Below are positions 6,312 through 27,466 of a stretch of DNA of 32,000 bases, in pieces; position 1 is the stretch's first letter; the number at the start of each line of letters is the position of its first letter. Both the position numbers and the translations under genes were made by a program. The DNA comes from Thermoproteus tenax Kra 1 (GTDB lineage Archaea > Thermoproteota > Thermoprotei > Thermoproteales > Thermoproteaceae): positions 900,001 to 932,000 of the forward strand of contig NC_016070.1 in the NCBI RefSeq assembly GCF_000253055.1, read 5' to 3'. The notes beneath the pieces were generated by a model. The model ran no database searches. It saw only the letters and a list, made by a program, of their open reading frames with translations, and was not told where the DNA came from.

Positions 6312-6395
6312 TTACCATTCCTCTTCCTCCTCCCACTCCTCCTCGAACTCGTCCCACAGCTCCTCTTCCTCCTCCCACTCCTCCTCAAATGGCAT
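6312..6395 (-). CDS. 27-aa hyper-acidic Trp/Glu peptide (novel small ORF candidate)
   Basis: Hand translation of the minus strand gives ATG..TAA = MPFEEEWEEEEELWDEFEEEWEEEEEW. A TTTATATA box (minus, 6415-6422) is centred about 25 nt upstream of the ATG, a leaderless geometry. T-runs follow the stop. The ORF contains a perfect 26-nt direct repeat (6319-6344 and 6361-6386). It is below the 60-aa cutoff of the ORF track. Confidence 0.4.
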   Translation of the reverse strand: MPFEEEWEEEEELWDEFEEEWEEEEEW

Positions 6396-6424: not shown

Positions 6425-7030
6425 ATGCACTTTGTAACTGTGGCGACGTTAGTGGCGGTCAAGAGGGCCTACGTGGAGGGAGTCACCCAAAGAAGAATCA
6501 GATATACATTTTTATATAACGAGGCGGCGCCGCTACGTCTGCTGATAGAGGAGGCGAGGCGCCGCGCCGAGGAGATAGCGGCTGAGTGGAGTTCGACCCT
6601 CTGCCGCGCGGAGCTCCCGAGCGTAGGAGTGCTCGCCCTAGAGTGGCTGGGAGGGACTCTATTGGCAGACTTGTCCATATGCTTCCCCATATCAAGGCCG
6701 TTGACGAGGCCCGTGGATATGTTCCTAGACGCAGAGTTCAAGAAACTATCCCTATGTCTTGAGCCTCTGGCCCCCATAGGGGAGATCTTGGGATATTCGG
6801 TGGCCAAGGCCAGATCCCTCAGAGATGCAGCGGGGCGCATCTCGTTGAGGGACGGCATCTTGGTGGTCAAACTGAAGGGCCTATATTTCATGGGAAGGGG
6901 ATCTGCCGAGCCCGATCTGCAGGGCGGCATCAGAGTCGAGGTGGCCAAGCTCGGCTGCGAGGGCATCGATCCCCTAAAGGGACTTCTGAAGGCCAGAGAG
7001 CTCCTCAGACGTCGGGGTAGGACAGCATGA
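6425..7030 (+). CDS. Hypothetical protein, no recognisable motifs
   Basis: 201-aa ORF with codon usage like the neighbouring genes (ATA, AGG/AGA, CTA/TTG). ATG 6425 lies only 3 nt after the TATA box, so the true start may be the in-frame GTG 6440 or 6452. The 3' end overlaps the convergent TnpB-like gene by 26 nt. Confidence 0.5.
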   Translation: MHFVTVATLVAVKRAYVEGVTQRRIRYTFLYNEAAPLRLLIEEARRRAEEIAAEWSSTLCRAELPSVGVLALEWLGGTLLADLSICFPISRPLTRPVDMFLDAEFKKLSLCLEPLAPIGEILGYSVAKARSLRDAAGRISLRDGILVVKLKGLYFMGRGSAEPDLQGGIRVEVAKLGCEGIDPLKGLLKARELLRRRGRTA

Positions 7031-7736
7031 AGGCCTCGCGGAGCTCGGCCAATTGCTCCATCCTGCCCAACCTCCTAATTATATTGCGGGCGAGCGTCCA
7101 CGCTGCGTTGACGTCTCTGTTTAACTGGACTTTACACTTAGGGCAGTAGACCAAGCGTCCTCTCTTGGTCATCCTGCCGCCGCATACGGGGCAGACATCC
7201 GACAGCATAGTGGTGTGTAGCTCCACGAAGTTCTCTTGCGCCAACGACAAGACCTCCCGCAGAGCTCTCTCGAACTGAGGAGCCATGGGCACGTCGGCTA
7301 TCAGAATGTTCACCCCCCTCTTGGGCACGAAGGCCTCTGAAATGCTCGAGGCGACCCCTCTGGCCACAAGCTCCGTGTAGCCCCCAAGTCTGAAGACTCT
7401 GTAGACTACGCCCCCCTCATTGACGTCCATGGCGTGGATTATAAGAGGCGCGCCCTCGGCCATCTCCCTTAGTCCGATCTTTTCATTGTCCCTTATCAGG
7501 CGGACAATGGCCCTATCCCCCTTGACATAGACCTCGGCCTTGGAGAGCCCCAAGGGCCTCCAATCGGCGTAGGTCAGACGCCATGATTTATACATACACA
7601 CCGGCATCTCTCCGGAGTAGAGCGAGACGACTGATTCAACTATTCGGACGGGTCCCCCCAGCTCGACCACAGCGTAGTCCCCTCCTATCGCTCCCCTGGC
7701 CCTCTCAGGGTCGCATTTGAGACTGTAGGTCAACAT
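7005..7736 (-). CDS. Miniature TnpB (IS605 OrfB)-like RuvC / zinc-ribbon protein, 243 aa
   Basis: I trimmed the track ORF 7005..7856 to ATG 7734-7736 (MLTYSLKCDPERARG...) because the upstream part overlaps the KaiC-like gene. The C-terminus CPVC-x12-CPKC-KVQLNRDVNAAWTLARNI is the TnpB/Cas12 Zn-finger plus RuvC-III signature. HAMDVNEGG fits RuvC-I. NILIADVP sits at the RuvC-II position, with Ala-Asp where TnpB has Glu. Confidence 0.65.
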   Translation of the reverse strand: MLTYSLKCDPERARGAIGGDYAVVELGGPVRIVESVVSLYSGEMPVCMYKSWRLTYADWRPLGLSKAEVYVKGDRAIVRLIRDNEKIGLREMAEGAPLIIHAMDVNEGGVVYRVFRLGGYTELVARGVASSISEAFVPKRGVNILIADVPMAPQFERALREVLSLAQENFVELHTTMLSDVCPVCGGRMTKRGRLVYCPKCKVQLNRDVNAAWTLARNIIRRLGRMEQLAELREAFMLSYPDV

Positions 7737-7747
7737 GCCGGCTCCAC

Positions 7748-8500
7748 TTACTCCGTTTTTATCCCCATCTCGGCCATCCTTCTGTTGAGATCCCTCAACA
7801 ACGCCTTGACGTCTACTTCCACCACCTTTTTGTCCACTATGTCTATATGGACCCAATCGTGGGAGACCCTCAGCCCTCTGGCCCTCGCAATCCTCAACCT
7901 CCTCATGAACAAGCCCATCTGTTCTAAGTTGGGATCCACCTCGGCCTCGATGATGAGGTCGGCCAGATGCTCGGCCAGGGCCAACGTGTTGGCTACATCC
8001 TCTACATCTGTATGGACGATGCCCACCACTATATTGTTGGTATATTTGGCGAATATCTTAAGTCCTCTGAACAGCTCAAAGACGTTCGACGACCTCAGTA
8101 TCACCTCGTTGAGGGAGTCGATTACCACTAGCCCGTTTTTGACGTACTCCGCCAACTCGGCCAGTTTGTCCAAAAAGGCCCTTGTATCCAAGACGTCCAA
8201 CCTCGATTTGTTCCAAAGCTTCATTTTGTTGATCCTCTCGGTGGGGGCATAGAAGCCGTCGACGATCAAGACCTCGGATGGATTCACGCCCCTCGACCTC
8301 AAGGCGTCCAGCACGTCATCGGGCAGAGCATCGATGGCGAACACTGCGGCGGGCGCCCCGGCATCTAGAGCGCTTTTCACGAAACAGTATGCGAAGAAGG
8401 TTTTGCCGACTCCCAAGGGGCCCTCAAGCAAGACGAGGTAGCCCGGGGGGACTCCGGACGGCGGAAGCTGTTGGTCGATAGGCTCAACTCCGGTCCTCAT
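7748..8500 (-). CDS. Single-domain KaiC/RadA-paralog (RecA-superfamily) ATPase
   Basis: 250-aa ORF with Walker A GPLGVGKT, Walker B LVVIDSL, and the N-terminal PIDQQL..GVPPGYLVLLEG pattern typical of archaeal KaiC-like proteins. The stop lies 11 nt upstream of the TnpB-like start. Confidence 0.85.
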   Translation of the reverse strand: MRTGVEPIDQQLPPSGVPPGYLVLLEGPLGVGKTFFAYCFVKSALDAGAPAAVFAIDALPDDVLDALRSRGVNPSEVLIVDGFYAPTERINKMKLWNKSRLDVLDTRAFLDKLAELAEYVKNGLVVIDSLNEVILRSSNVFELFRGLKIFAKYTNNIVVGIVHTDVEDVANTLALAEHLADLIIEAEVDPNLEQMGLFMRRLRIARARGLRVSHDWVHIDIVDKKVVEVDVKALLRDLNRRMAEMGIKTE

Positions 8501-8554
8501 AGTCTCTATGTTCCCCCCTTTTAAGAGCTTTTAACTAGCGGCCAGCTCTGGTTT

Positions 8555-9433
8555 GTGGGCGTGATAGCCAAATTCGACCCTTGGGGCAACCCGCTCTGTC
8601 CGTGTCCCCCCAAGTACGGCTTGAACCCCTACACTGGGTGTGGGCACGGCTGTCTCTACTGCTATATAACCGGCTACATCCCCCGCGCCTTCCAGCCCAG
8701 GCCCAAGGAGGATCTCCTAGAGCGGATTATGAGGGATCTGAAGAAGTTGCCCAAGGGGTCCGTGATATCGTTGTCCAACTCCTCGGACCCCTACACTCCG
8801 CCCGAGGCGCAGCTCAAGCTGACCCGCAAGGCCCTGTCCCTCATCTTGGGCGAAGGCCATAAGGTGCTCATAGTGACGAAATCGCCGTTGGTGTTGAGAG
8901 ACTTGGACTTGTTCACAAGATACAAGGGTAGAGTCGTGGTGCAGATAACTATAACTACTCTTGACGAAAAGTTGGCGAGCGTCTTGGAGCCGAACGCGCC
9001 CAAGCCGTCGGCCCGGCTGGAGGCGGTCAGAAGGCTTTCCCGCGCAGGTATACCGACTGGAGTTAGGCTGGACCCCATAGTGCCCTTTGTAAACGATAGC
9101 CTAGACTCGCTGGCGGCAGTGGTCGACGCGGCGGCCGGGGCCGGGGCGAGGCAGCTGGTGGCCAGCACGTACAAGGCTAAGCCGGACAACTTCGCCAGAC
9201 TCTTGAGGGCCTTCCCGGAGCTCACCGATAGGCTCAAGGACATGTACTGGACTAGGGGAACCTACATGCATGGGCAGAGATATGCGCCGGCAGAGTACAG
9301 AAGGAGGATATTGGAGGCGGTCAAAGCTATGGCAGAGGCCGCGGGGCTTCAATTCAACGTGTGTAGGGAGGAGTTCTTCGACCTTAACACGCCCAACACG
9401 TATTGCGACGGAAGTAACTTACTCTCCAGTTAG
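8555..9433 (+). CDS. Radical SAM protein, SPL/SplB-like (COG1533 'DNA repair photolyase' type)
   Basis: 292-aa ORF with a GTG start. It has a CGHGCLYCY CxxxCxxC cluster near the N-terminus, and the N-terminal FDPWGNPLCPCPPKYGLNPYTGC and overall size are as in COG1533 proteins. Divergent from the KaiC-like gene across a 54-nt A/T-containing promoter region (8501-8554). Confidence 0.8.
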   Translation: MGVIAKFDPWGNPLCPCPPKYGLNPYTGCGHGCLYCYITGYIPRAFQPRPKEDLLERIMRDLKKLPKGSVISLSNSSDPYTPPEAQLKLTRKALSLILGEGHKVLIVTKSPLVLRDLDLFTRYKGRVVVQITITTLDEKLASVLEPNAPKPSARLEAVRRLSRAGIPTGVRLDPIVPFVNDSLDSLAAVVDAAAGAGARQLVASTYKAKPDNFARLLRAFPELTDRLKDMYWTRGTYMHGQRYAPAEYRRRILEAVKAMAEAAGLQFNVCREEFFDLNTPNTYCDGSNLLSS

Positions 9434-10755: not shown

Positions 10756-10862
10756 AGAGAGGGCGGAGTGTAGGCCCCCCGGAGGAGGCCCTATCATCGG
10801 CGCGGGGTGCCCGCCGCTCTGGACCTCACACCTAGGGCCAGTATCTAAGGATGTCGTTTTAT

Positions 10863-20497: not shown

Positions 20498-21601
20498 ATG
20501 ATTATCGATCTTTCTGGAATTGTTGCTATTTACGGGGGCCCAGGGACGGGGAAGACCACTCTCGCCGCATCGGTGGCCCACAAGAGGCTCGCCCAAGGCG
20601 AGAGAGTCCTCTGGGCCTCTTTCTACGAGGACAAGCCCACTCTGCTGAGCTCCATGGCCCGCCTGGGCTACGACTTGAGCGGCGCAGACGTATGGGAGGC
20701 CGTCCTCACAGACCCCACCTCCACCTTCAACCAGATCTCCCACTTAGTCTCCCACAGCCCGCCGAACCTCCTGGTCCTGGACTCTATAACTCAGCTTCAG
20801 GGCGTGGACATCAGAGCCAACGTCACAAACCTTATATACCGCGCCTTCAAATTCGCCGGAATTGACGCCATAATAATCTCGGAGGAGCCGCCCGGCCCCC
20901 TGAGCTACATCGCCGACACGAGCGTCAGAATGTCCCTCGAGCTGACGAGCAGGGGGGTCCCCATCAGGAGGATGGTGGTGGAGAAGTCAAGAGGGGCTCC
21001 CGCCGGCGTGGCCAAAGAGTTTGAGATCCTCGAGGGAGCCGGCATAATCTTCCTAGACGAGCTGAGACCCAAGGTGGCCAAGAGCTCCTCGCTGTCCCTC
21101 GACGGCGCCTCAGTCTCGGGCGCCCGCTCTGCCCTAATTGTCGGAGGCTCCTCCGGAGTGTTCGCGGCCGCGTGGGCCGAGAGGCTGGCCGCCTCAGGCT
21201 CCAGAGTGTTGTTCCGCACCTATAGATCCTCACTCCCCTCCATAAAGGGGGCCCAGGTGGACAAACTGATGGCGGATCCAAAGGCGTACGGCAGACATAT
21301 CTACGAGTTGGTGAAAAAGGTCGAGGAGGCCGACGCCGACGTGGTCTTCTACGACGGCCTCGAAGTGGAGGAGCTGGTCTACGGCGCGAGGGAGGCGTTC
21401 TCCCTCAATTTGAGGAAGATACGCGCGTTGACAGAGCGCGGAATAGCCCTAGTCCTGTCGGGCCTGAGGGGGCGTTGGCTCAGATCCGTAGTAGACGCCG
21501 TAGTTGTGGCGTCTGGAGACATCGCGACGATCTCCAAGCCCTATTCTCCTCCGCTGACCTGCAAGTTCTCGGCCGCCGGCGGGCTCTCGCTCAGCTGTTG
21601 A
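20498..21601 (+). CDS. Two-domain KaiC-like ATPase (active N-terminal P-loop domain, degenerate second domain)
   Basis: 367-aa ORF with Walker A GGPGTGKTT at residues 13-21 and Walker B LLVLDS. The second half is RecA-like in layout, but the P-loop position reads LIVGGSSGVFAAAW. It is paralogous by eye to 26261..27466 (TLAASVAHKRL..WASFYEDKPTLLSSMARLGYDL versus ALAASVANRYK..WFTFYENRNRLIKFLTSMGIEP). Confidence 0.8.
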   Translation: MIIDLSGIVAIYGGPGTGKTTLAASVAHKRLAQGERVLWASFYEDKPTLLSSMARLGYDLSGADVWEAVLTDPTSTFNQISHLVSHSPPNLLVLDSITQLQGVDIRANVTNLIYRAFKFAGIDAIIISEEPPGPLSYIADTSVRMSLELTSRGVPIRRMVVEKSRGAPAGVAKEFEILEGAGIIFLDELRPKVAKSSSLSLDGASVSGARSALIVGGSSGVFAAAWAERLAASGSRVLFRTYRSSLPSIKGAQVDKLMADPKAYGRHIYELVKKVEEADADVVFYDGLEVEELVYGAREAFSLNLRKIRALTERGIALVLSGLRGRWLRSVVDAVVVASGDIATISKPYSPPLTCKFSAAGGLSLSC

Positions 21602-26260: not shown

Positions 26261-27466
26261 CTAGGCGACTCTGCGGAAGGCCACTCTCCTCTCAGAGGGG
26301 TCCAGTTGGAATTTAAACTTCAGAGGCTCTATATGCTCGGGCGTATGCGCTATCAAGGCGTCCCGCTCAAACATGAATACGTAATCGGGTATCCCGCCCA
26401 ACGTGAGAGATATCCTTTTCCACACGTCGTGCGAATTGACGATTAGCACAGTCGTCACTCTCCTCTCCAGTCTCGATTGATACACTTGCGAGGCCTCCAA
26501 TAGAATCTCGTCCCCAGCCACCGTGACCACCTGTTCGTACTGATCGGCGAAATGTACATCTATGTTCAACCGGTTCACCAACTCCGCCGCTTTATACCAC
26601 CATGTTATAGACGCGTGTTCGCCCACAGGGTGGTAGTACCAAGTCAGATTGGGGTGCTTGACCTTTGCCCCCAAGGACTCGGCGAATTTGGCGAAGGTCG
26701 GAATCAGCTTGTGGTGGTGATACAAGACTTTTTTACCTGCCCTAGCTAACATGGACGCCGTCAAGACCATGAGCTTGCTCGCCAGCCCGTCCTCCGGGCC
26801 CACCACGACTACGTAGCTCCCAGCGATCACTCCGCCGTTTAGCTCTCTGTCAACAACGGGATCTCCTGTGGTGAGCCTCTCCTCCGGCGCCTCTCTGGCC
26901 TCTTGAGGCGGCGTGATTATCTTGGGACCTCCTTCGTCAAGGAGGAAGGTGTACGTGTTTAGATGTAGCGGCTGCCCCCTGCTTTTGACCACAGTGAGGT
27001 AGCGCATCAACTGGCCGGTCTTGCTAGCTCTATACGACAAGACTATAATATTGTCCGCTATATAGTCCGCGGGTCCGACCTCCTCGCCCTCCTTTATTAA
27101 GACGGTGGGCATTAAGGCTGAGACGAAGTGATACATAAGCGAGTGGACCACCTCCCTCTCGCCCTCATTAGTGAGGGCGTTTAGCCCGTCGATCACTACG
27201 AAGTCGGGCTTGATCTCGGCTATCTTCTTGAGAATTATCTCGACGAGCTCCTTGTGGCTGGAGGTAGATATCAGGTCGAATATGTGGCGCGGTGGCTCTA
27301 TGCCCATCGACGTCAGAAACTTTATAAGCCTGTTTCTGTTCTCGTAGAAGGTGAACCACGCCGAGTTTTTATATCTGTTGGCCACGGAGGCGGCCAAGGC
27401 GGTCTTCCCGGAGCCTGGCGGGCCCTTTATTAGGGTCAGCCCCTCGGAGAATAGCCTCTCCAACAC
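26261..27466 (-). CDS. Two-domain KaiC-like ATPase (degenerate second P-loop), paralog of 20498..21601
   Basis: 401-aa ORF with a GTG start, Walker A GPPGSGKT and Walker B FVVIDGL. The P-loop position in the second domain reads VVVVGPEDGLASKL. Its stop codon (26261-26263) abuts the stop (26258-26260) of the convergent KaiC-like gene with a 0-nt gap. Confidence 0.85.
   Translation of the reverse strand: MLERLFSEGLTLIKGPPGSGKTALAASVANRYKNSAWFTFYENRNRLIKFLTSMGIEPPRHIFDLISTSSHKELVEIILKKIAEIKPDFVVIDGLNALTNEGEREVVHSLMYHFVSALMPTVLIKEGEEVGPADYIADNIIVLSYRASKTGQLMRYLTVVKSRGQPLHLNTYTFLLDEGGPKIITPPQEAREAPEERLTTGDPVVDRELNGGVIAGSYVVVVGPEDGLASKLMVLTASMLARAGKKVLYHHHKLIPTFAKFAESLGAKVKHPNLTWYYHPVGEHASITWWYKAAELVNRLNIDVHFADQYEQVVTVAGDEILLEASQVYQSRLERRVTTVLIVNSHDVWKRISLTLGGIPDYVFMFERDALIAHTPEHIEPLKFKFQLDPSERRVAFRRVA

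Follow-up and report, generated by a model that had tools for sequence, protein, structure and literature searches.

A miniature, non-mobile TnpB-derived protein of Thermoproteus tenax and its gene neighbourhood in the Thermoproteaceae

The mini-TnpB locus of Thermoproteus tenax

TnpB is the ancestor of Cas12 and is among the most abundant genes of prokaryotes. Stripped-down TnpBs that are kept by their hosts show what a bare RuvC and zinc-ribbon scaffold does without a guide RNA, and a protein well suited to this question is encoded in the stretch of DNA analysed here, 32,000 nucleotides of Thermoproteus tenax Kra 1 (NC_016070.1, positions 900,001-932,000, forward strand), referred to below as the window and from whose start all coordinates are counted. 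This TnpB-derived protein, which we call mini-TnpB, is encoded at 7005..7736 on the reverse strand and comprises an N-terminal beta domain, a RuvC core and a TNB zinc ribbon. It has only 243 residues, diverges about as slowly as LeuRS, carries four invariant acidic residues and has full-length, mobile relatives within its own archaeal family with which it can be compared.

Directly upstream of mini-TnpB, on the same strand, lies the gene of a single-domain ATPase of the KaiC/RadA-paralogue type (7748..8500, 250 residues, Pfam PF06745), which displays the motifs GPLGVGKT (residues 27-34) and LVVIDSL (residues 124-130). Its TAA stop codon (7748-7750) and the ATG of mini-TnpB (7734-7736) are separated by a spacer of 11 nt (7737..7747, reverse strand, gtggagccggc) that contains GGAG. 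Considering that an ATAAAA box located ~21-27 nt upstream of the mini-TnpB ATG is a possible internal promoter, co-transcription of the two genes in T. tenax should be regarded as likely rather than as demonstrated. A longer, TTG-initiated open reading frame extending up to 7856 was discarded as an artefact, given that the same M/V is the first residue in every one of the 17 aligned orthologues. On the other side of the ATPase gene, a divergent promoter region of 54 nt (8501..8554) with two TATA-like boxes leads to the gene of a COG1533-like radical SAM protein of the PA0069/Rv2578c/DUF1848 group (8555..9433, forward strand; PF04055 and PF08902). The boxes, TTAAAA and TTTTAA, stand back to back, each ~20-28 nt from its own start codon, which is the spacing that divergent leaderless transcripts would be expected to show. 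At its 3' end, mini-TnpB overlaps by 26 nt a convergent open reading frame of 201 codons, orf201 (6425..7030, forward strand). A first-pass annotation of this DNA had described the same coordinates, the 11-nt spacing, the 26-nt overlap, the 54-nt divergent spacer and the motifs, and all of them were correct when the sequence was read again.

Fold, inheritance and flanks of mini-TnpB

Family models recognise the C-terminal part of mini-TnpB. The Cas12f1-like TNB domain of Pfam (PF07282) matches residues 154-214 with 35.1 bits against a cut-off of 26.3. The zinc ribbon itself (C182-x2-C185-x12-C198-x2-C201, residues 179-206; 7119..7202, reverse strand), which is also recovered by guided_TnpB and by hhalign, reads C182-P-V-C185-x12-C198-P-K-C201-KVQLNRDVNAAW, and its four cysteines are invariant across the alignment of 17 orthologues (A1). 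Among the NCBIfam models, guided_TnpB (NF040570) reaches 23.1 bits against a cut-off of 100 and covers residues 179-217 only, which correspond to model positions 346-388 of 389, IS200_TnpB reaches 16.7 bits against a cut-off of 425, and the TnpB, Cas12f2 and IS607-TnpB models match the last ~40 residues only, far under their cut-offs; none of the curated TnpB models of NCBIfam gives a full-length match. The Cas12f models of PADLOC also match the C-terminal 40 residues, and a sequence search of solved structures, using both the protein and the family profile, returned only weak zinc-ribbon matches (TiaS, DNA ligase and Cas12n 9j09, the last with an E-value of 0.2).

The structure of mini-TnpB predicted by AlphaFold2 on the basis of 17 orthologues has a predicted local distance difference test score (pLDDT) of 91.6 and a predicted template modelling score (pTM) of 0.89. 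It can be divided into an N-terminal beta-rich domain (residues 1-96; 7449..7736, reverse strand) and, as supported by model and alignment together, a RuvC core of RNase H fold into which the zinc ribbon is inserted and which ends in helices (residues 97-243; 7005..7448, reverse strand). The predicted core consists of beta strands 98-106, 109-117 and 122-129, a short helix, strand 142-148, helix 153-165 and strand 170-174, followed by the zinc ribbon (180-206) and two C-terminal helices, an order of strands and helices in agreement with the RNase H fold. The nine best Foldseek matches in the PDB are all Cas12f, Cas12g or TnpB (E 1e-5 to 7e-4), led by AsCas12f, Cas12g, SpCas12f1 and ISFba1 TnpB with probabilities of 0.97-1.0 and leading E-values of 1e-5 to 1e-4, and T. 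thermophilus RuvC is matched at E 0.018. In the same way, the search against viral models (BFVD) gave IS607/TnpB 'transposases' at the top (E 1e-6 to 1e-4). The likeness is at the domain level, since template modelling scores are only ~0.3 and the overall root-mean-square deviation exceeds 16 Å. The N-terminal domain sits at the WED position of TnpB and, when modelled alone, has a pLDDT of 89.1. There is no REC lobe in the model, where a single helix of eight residues (10-17) occupies the site at which the mobile relatives carry an insert of ~70-90 residues. Mini-TnpB is therefore a TnpB-superfamily protein with a RuvC domain and a zinc ribbon, and the RuvC-fold relationship proposed in the first-pass annotation is borne out by Pfam and by the matches of the predicted structure to Cas12f, Cas12g and TnpB.

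The phyletic range of mini-TnpB is narrow. Only 24 homologues were found among 5.8 billion protein clusters, nearly all of 243 residues and belonging to Thermoproteus and Pyrobaculum. The aligned orthologues are 60-80% identical to the T. tenax protein and have 243 residues in 16 of the 17 cases and 242 in the other one; P0001 (proteins and loci recovered in the homologue searches are numbered P#### and L###, respectively) is 99% identical to it. With a hidden Markov model we searched 1.84 billion representatives and obtained three full-length clusters only, two of them distant (P0025, 245 residues; P0026, 229 residues), with no full-length similarity to any other family. Three further proteins from the search of representatives were set aside, P0028 and P0032 as repeat or multi-zinc-ribbon proteins on inspection and P0029 solely on its multi-stretch pattern. 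When 185,579 species, each represented by a single genome, were scanned by pattern, 15 mini-TnpB loci were recovered in 14 genomes, two of them complete, all of Thermoproteaceae and with one intact copy in each. The apparent second copy in L023 (8001-8908, metagenome-assembled genome KC_015) was rejected as a paralogue, its frame being shifted by an internal tandem duplication of ~176 nt; it is either an assembly artefact or a disrupted allele, in an assembly that probably mixes two Pyrobaculum genomes. The odd length of the copy in L013 is due to an N-gap in the scaffold. Altogether, the gene occurs in Thermoproteus, Pyrobaculum and two deeper-branching lineages.

Within this range mini-TnpB behaves as an immobile, slowly evolving gene. 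Its position is syntenic across genera, no tnpA partner is present at the locus, and a repeat search detected no flanking inverted or direct repeats beyond chance 14-17-mers that could represent insertion sequence ends. Identity to the T. tenax protein is 80, 63, 64 and 44% in T. uzoniensis, P. islandicum, L005 and L024, respectively, values that can be compared with those of LeuRS (78, 66, 62 and 56%) and of the radical SAM protein (79, 67, 63 and 56%) in the same four genomes. Divergence tracks the host: the gene is inherited vertically, and purifying selection holds it to a housekeeping-like rate. The single-copy orthologue without flanking repeats is not an insertion sequence remnant, and the first-pass description of a miniature non-mobile derivative of the TnpB/Cas12 group is upheld by the TNB domain, the RuvC fold, the missing REC lobe and the lack of an insertion sequence context.

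There is no adjacent space for a guide RNA at mini-TnpB. In every arrangement the next gene overlaps its 3' end or begins at most 36 nt downstream (gaps of -26, 30, 6 and 36 nt, with L028 at 0 nt), and on the upstream side a gene ends 1-37 nt ahead of the start (for instance 11, 1 and 28 nt) or mini-TnpB abuts a short divergent promoter. An omega-like RNA embedded in the 3' part of the coding sequence was considered and rejected, because codon-level synonymous identity among 18 orthologues is flat (0.39-0.59, mean 0.48). It does not climb over the highly conserved C-terminal tail, implying that the tail is conserved as protein and not as an overlapping RNA. Rfam gave nothing near mini-TnpB, and its only matches in the window are an H/ACA small RNA at 10769-10838 and a tRNA-Ser. 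Neither the transposon context nor the 3' omega RNA that characterise the mobile OMEGA systems (IS200/IS605 and IS607) was found. Cas12f/Cas14 (type V-F) provides the best structural match (AsCas12f 8j12_B, E 1.3e-5, probability 1.0); in comparison, mini-TnpB is about half the size and has no CRISPR array or cas genes.

The candidate catalytic site and full-length relatives

Invariance and co-alignment point to four candidate catalytic residues, all encoded on the reverse strand: D104 (7425-7427) in the RuvC-I motif 'DVNE', D148 (7293-7295) at the end of beta4, E172 (7221-7223) in 'VELH' of beta5, and D208 (7113-7115) in the RuvC-III motif 'RDVNA'. The first two lie 44 residues apart within the segments HAMDVNEGG (101-109) and NILIADVP (143-150). 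None of the four varies among the 17 orthologues or in the distant members P0025 and P0026. The canonical D-E-D triad with a glutamate in beta4 is not found in mini-TnpB, as the position of this glutamate is A, V or I in every family member; D148 and E172 are invariant instead.

A truncated TnpB near the P. islandicum locus, used as query, led to a full-length IS605-OrfB family of ~415 residues. P. islandicum by itself encodes more than 20 paralogues of it, and further copies occur in T. tenax and P. neutrophilum. This family conserves D204-V-N206, 'AAIVVD303' and R383-D384, with E349 near-invariant in 'PYrEeRLYST'; D204, D303 and D384 are invariant, and there is no beta4 glutamate. In a MAFFT co-alignment, D104, D148, E172 and D208 of mini-TnpB share columns with D204, D303, E349 and D384, and mini-TnpB corresponds to the ~415-residue scaffold minus the N-terminal helical insert, the coiled-coil insert between RuvC-I and RuvC-II and the loop after beta4. 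Both proteins have the TNB zinc ribbon, a DVN RuvC-I motif, at RuvC-II a hydrophobic strand whose last residue is Asp, a beta5 Glu ahead of the 'STxCP' entry into the zinc ribbon and the RD of RuvC-III, whereas the mobile protein is ~170 residues longer, multi-copy and annotated as a transposase. Profile-profile comparison with the alignment of the mobile TnpBs (A4) gave an E-value of 9e-12 in hhalign over mini-TnpB residues 175-216. The P. islandicum paralogues are themselves diverged, with 50-75% identity (proteins P0047-P0075; L029, CP000504, 15644-16786), and constitute a candidate archaeal 'RuvC-II rearranged' mobile clade.

Altae-Tran et al. (PMC10691335) describe RuvC-II rearrangements with a relocated compensating Glu in TnpB clades, several of them archaea-specific, and point out a RuvX-like beta5 Glu position for rearranged TnpB sites. 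Because the D/D/E/D pattern is invariant, recurs in multi-copy TnpBs and has documented precedents, we read the site of mini-TnpB as rearranged and probably active rather than dead. The earlier suggestion that the protein is possibly nuclease-impaired is thereby weakened and probably wrong, given that the related multi-copy TnpBs share the hydrophobic strand with its Asp and the beta5 Glu, and that all four acidic positions are invariant.

A different reading of the same residues is that mini-TnpB is a nuclease-dead, TldR-like DNA-binding regulator, RNA-guided or guide-independent, of neighbouring genes such as the divergent radical SAM/ATPase unit or eIF-1A. The Ala, Val or Ile at the beta4 Glu position of all family members would be in line with such a role, and so would the basic character of the family (isoelectric points of 8.1-9.3) and its frequent location at divergent promoter regions; moreover, exapted and inactivated TnpBs such as TldR, Sigma-TnpB, flagellin-TnpB and DppD-TnpB are on record (PMC10705468 and PMC10691335). 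We nevertheless consider a dead regulator unlikely. The Asp residues of RuvC-I and RuvC-III, together with the motifs around them (DVNE, RDVNA), stay unchanged down to an overall identity of 44%, whereas the inactivated TnpB clades have all three catalytic motifs replaced (PMC10691335), and a beta4 strand without Glu is also found in related species, in mobile TnpBs that are multi-copy and presumably functional. Mini-TnpB further lacks adjacent non-coding space, an embedded conserved RNA and a REC lobe. TldR-type proteins, too, are domesticated and immobile, and their hosts maintain them in a constant genomic setting, but they are bacterial, retain the REC lobe and an adjacent guide RNA, and have mutated catalytic residues; neither the loss of RuvC residues nor the guide locus that define TldR was observed here.

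Closer counterparts are found among non-mobile archaeal TnpBs. Altae-Tran et al. 2023 (PMC10691335) report ~280-residue 'GATase-TnpB' proteins of Sulfolobaceae, made of wedge and RuvC only, and ~220-residue RuvC-only TnpBs of Halobacteria, and suggest that the Sulfolobaceae proteins may be nucleases that work without RNA. Mini-TnpB resembles them in being archaeal, small, REC-less, fixed in its lineage and non-mobile, in having no guide space and in apparently keeping its acidic residues, and differs in its taxon (Thermoproteaceae), in the rearranged RuvC-II and in its neighbours, which are the ATPase, a metallophosphoesterase, the radical SAM gene and eIF-1A instead of the GATase of the Sulfolobaceae protein. 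By description, the 243-residue protein belongs with the non-mobile miniature archaeal TnpBs and is thus an addition to a group already described. The first-pass statement that no such system had been described therefore needs correction with regard to small non-mobile WED and RuvC archaeal TnpBs, which are known (PMC10691335), and stands with regard to this particular family and its gene neighbourhood, neither of which appears in the available text of the same source. Our literature search turned up no publication in which TnpB is linked to Pyrobaculum or Thermoproteus.

Neighbouring genes and possible roles

The ATPase matches PF06745 (KaiC) with an E-value of 1.8e-14 and 54.1 bits against a cut-off of 26.6, and its nearest sequences in the PDB are KaiC (8db3, E 6.2e-9) and the single-domain PH0284 (2dr3, E 7.5e-9). 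The Walker A motif G-x2-G-x-G-K (G27, G30, G32 and K33) and the Walker B residue D128 are invariant in 10 orthologues. With a single domain and an NCBIfam circ_KaiC score of 12.6 against a cut-off of 546, it is distinct from the double-domain clock KaiC; its relatives, in a search limited to close relatives, come from Thermoproteus and Pyrobaculum only. The radical SAM protein matches PF04055 (E 3.3e-16, 60.3 bits against 29.5) and PF08902 (33.9 bits against 30.5). It had been labelled 'SPL-type', which remains valid at the level of the superfamily and fails below it, as the SPL models score far under their cut-offs (PF20903, 13.9 against 27; TIGR04070, 21.5 against 400). By sequence the protein appears nearest to the models of PA0069/Rv2578c type, also below their cut-offs (rSAM_PA0069 of NCBIfam, 136.9 bits against 360), and a sequence search of solved structures gave no relative of it.

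The arrangement of these genes differs between lineages. In Thermoproteus (T. tenax, T. uzoniensis and five others), drawn with mini-TnpB on the plus strand, the radical SAM gene (minus) is followed by ATPase and mini-TnpB (both plus) and by orf201 (minus), and the spacing from ATPase to mini-TnpB is ~22-37 nt in L004, L009, L010 and L030 (T. uzoniensis). Most Pyrobaculum (L008/L022, L017, L018, L021 and P. islandicum, as well as L016 as far as its contig end) have eIF-1A, then mini-TnpB followed by a metallophosphoesterase, then the ATPase and the radical SAM gene. This phosphoesterase is of calcineurin type (Pfam Metallophos_2/_3), and no homologue of it was found in the Thermoproteus window. 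In L005/L019 the order is radical SAM gene, metallophosphoesterase, mini-TnpB and eIF-1A. Approximately 6 kb separate mini-TnpB from the radical SAM and ATPase genes in L020 (P. oguniense) and L023, the latter with a phosphoesterase-ATPase-radical SAM string, and in L001 the ~6 kb from mini-TnpB to the radical SAM gene, which is the last of the locus, are taken up by four genes. A different KaiC paralogue of 364 residues, in a T2SSF-containing set, lies directly upstream of mini-TnpB in L014/L015, and a Mut7-C RNase gene does so in L028. Finally, the deeper lineage (L024-L027) has eIF-1A and RIO1, then a 95-residue open reading frame (orf95), mini-TnpB, the radical SAM gene and a VTT gene in a row, and LeuRS, with neither ATPase nor phosphoesterase.

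Mini-TnpB and the metallophosphoesterase lie side by side, with either gene first, in at least seven Pyrobaculum lineages, and its immediate partner in this genus is the phosphoesterase, a different KaiC paralogue or none. The tightest pair of the four-gene neighbourhood is that of ATPase and radical SAM, which stand head to head in Thermoproteus, P. islandicum, L007/L015, L017, L018 and L021. The operon of ATPase and mini-TnpB is thus a trait of Thermoproteus, and the wider association of mini-TnpB is a shuffled, recurrent four-gene neighbourhood. As a consequence, the operon recognised by the first-pass annotation can be maintained for Thermoproteus, where the ATPase is next to mini-TnpB in seven species and not just in one genome, and does not extend to Pyrobaculum and the deeper lineage, where the partners are others. 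Being genus-specific, the pairing is less exceptional than it looked.

An obligate two-protein machine, in which the KaiC-like ATPase loads, remodels or regulates the mini-TnpB nuclease, would explain why the two genes are adjacent, co-directional and 11-37 nt apart in seven Thermoproteus species, why another KaiC paralogue is found directly upstream in L014/L015, and why the range of the 250-residue type of ATPase, in the close-relative search, overlaps that of mini-TnpB. Sulfolobus RadA paralogues of this type have also been reported to interact with the resolvase Hjc. Such a machine appears distinctly unlikely, however, as most Pyrobaculum ATPases are on the opposite strand beyond the phosphoesterase, or ~7 kb away, and in L005/L019 and L024 no ATPase lies within 6-8 kb. 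The steadiest partner of the ATPase is the radical SAM gene and not mini-TnpB, and the ATPase diverges faster (50-54% identity, against 63-70% for mini-TnpB). The adjacency in L014/L015 may be incidental, the 364-residue paralogue being part of a type IV pilus-like gene set with T2SSF.

The other persistent neighbours would fit a nuclease for RNA processing or ribosome biogenesis, comparable to RuvX/YqgF, whose gene was drawn into the surroundings of the translation apparatus and which acts on rRNA or tRNA precursors instead of DNA. eIF-1A is a neighbour in all Pyrobaculum arrangements examined and in L024, and RIO1, NMD3, LeuRS and the ribosomal proteins L1, L10 and L11 are further persistent neighbours; the Mut7-C RNase gene directly upstream in L028, the H/ACA small RNA 3 kb off in the window, the housekeeping-like evolutionary rate and the RuvX-like beta5 Glu noted for rearranged TnpB sites (PMC10691335) would all be compatible with it. 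Housekeeping neighbours are typical of synteny, however, and differ between Thermoproteus and Pyrobaculum, and a range of one archaeal family plus two deeper lineages would be odd for a core ribosome-biogenesis factor. To our knowledge, no member of the TnpB family is known to have RNA processing as its primary function, and we judge this role to be very unlikely.

The explanation that we favour, and to which we give an even chance as a whole, is that mini-TnpB is an immobilised, exapted TnpB, probably a guide-independent nuclease, weakly tied to a putative repair or processing neighbourhood. Without the REC lobe and the helical inserts that its full-length relatives carry, the protein is reduced to the N-terminal beta domain, the RuvC core and the TNB ribbon, and the gene passes vertically as a single chromosomal copy through the Thermoproteaceae and two deeper-branching lineages. 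In the resulting D..D..E..D constellation, the Asp at the strand end together with the beta5 Glu would replace the canonical beta4 Glu and leave the site intact. The protein would then cut or bind nucleic acids of a particular structure or sequence without a guide; guide-free action seems most likely because the REC lobe, which holds the guide-target duplex, is missing and no omega RNA is encoded in cis. The ATPase, metallophosphoesterase and radical SAM neighbourhood would suggest DNA repair or processing, with the ATPase as operon partner in Thermoproteus, although the functional link is weak. The more specific proposal that this REC-less and guide-less core nuclease works with ATPase, phosphoesterase and radical SAM protein in an undescribed Thermoproteaceae repair or processing pathway strikes us as rather improbable.

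Several observations weigh against the favoured explanation. Profile-profile similarity to the mobile family is significant over the zinc ribbon only, and comparisons of the hhalign type with a 147-residue RuvC-only fragment, the truncated P. islandicum TnpB and the mobile family reach significance only over the helix-beta5-zinc ribbon segment, so that the correspondence of RuvC-I and RuvC-II depends on an unvalidated MAFFT alignment and on motifs. It is likewise by alignment that D148 and E172 are predicted to reach the metal site. The N-terminal domain, searched alone with Foldseek, gave no significant match (best E 0.24), and among the insignificant ones are dCas12f (E 0.35), ISFba1 TnpB (E 0.71), Cas12n (E 0.79) and also Cas12g. 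A guide RNA may be encoded in trans. With respect to the neighbourhood, L005/L019, L014 and L024 have no ATPase gene within 6-8 kb of mini-TnpB. Besides, eIF-1A and LeuRS are improbable as partners and yet accompany mini-TnpB just as persistently, for which reason much of the neighbourhood may be plain synteny of close genera. If mini-TnpB is indeed an active guide-independent nuclease tied to its neighbours, it would represent a new host function for TnpB, indicate what three little-understood protein families of archaea do and mean that TnpB was exapted into housekeeping DNA metabolism, not into defence or transcriptional regulation. If it is not, the protein is one more non-mobile mini-TnpB of the catalogued sort.

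A reading of the locus as a defence system was also considered, as PADLOC matches the C terminus of mini-TnpB to Cas12f-like models, the ATPase weakly to mad8 and the phosphoesterase to PDC-S10; single-copy, syntenic and vertical inheritance argues against a typical defence island. The match of the phosphoesterase (207 residues; L005, 5376-5999, and orthologues) to the defence candidate PDC-S10 has an E-value of 1.7e-21.

Further features of the locus and its counterparts deserve mention. orf201 has no Pfam or NCBIfam match. It is found at the same position in L004 and L009-L013 with 50-60% identity (tblastn) and in L030 with 57%, a 32%-identical match lies ~4.5 kb from mini-TnpB in L024, and it is kept beside mini-TnpB in Thermoproteus only. 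The 229-nt gap between orf201 and the AdoMet decarboxylase gene contains, at 6319-6389, two near-identical CT-rich repeats of 29 nt (TCCTCTTCCTCCTCCCACTCCTCCTC) and degenerate copies. The four co-directional genes of L001 (6899-12462) encode proteins of 717, 186, 773 and 182 residues with no Pfam match, and this ~6-kb gap and those of similar size in L020 and L023 are possibly an inserted island. In L024, the 95-residue open reading frame (7727-8014), which belongs to no family, overlaps the start of mini-TnpB by 14 nt, and the Mut7-C gene of L028 (2036-2410) encodes a PIN-like RNase. The window holds two further KaiC-family paralogues (20498-21601, forward strand; 26261-27466, reverse strand), which show 27-29% identity to the 364-residue paralogue of L014/L015. 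Finally, the H/ACA small RNA at 10769-10838, on the reverse strand, corresponds to the Pyrobaculum H/ACA-box RNA PyrR201 of Rfam (E 7.7e-7; 51.6 bits, with the gathering score at 49) and lies in the small gap that separates LeuRS from the gene with the VTT domain.

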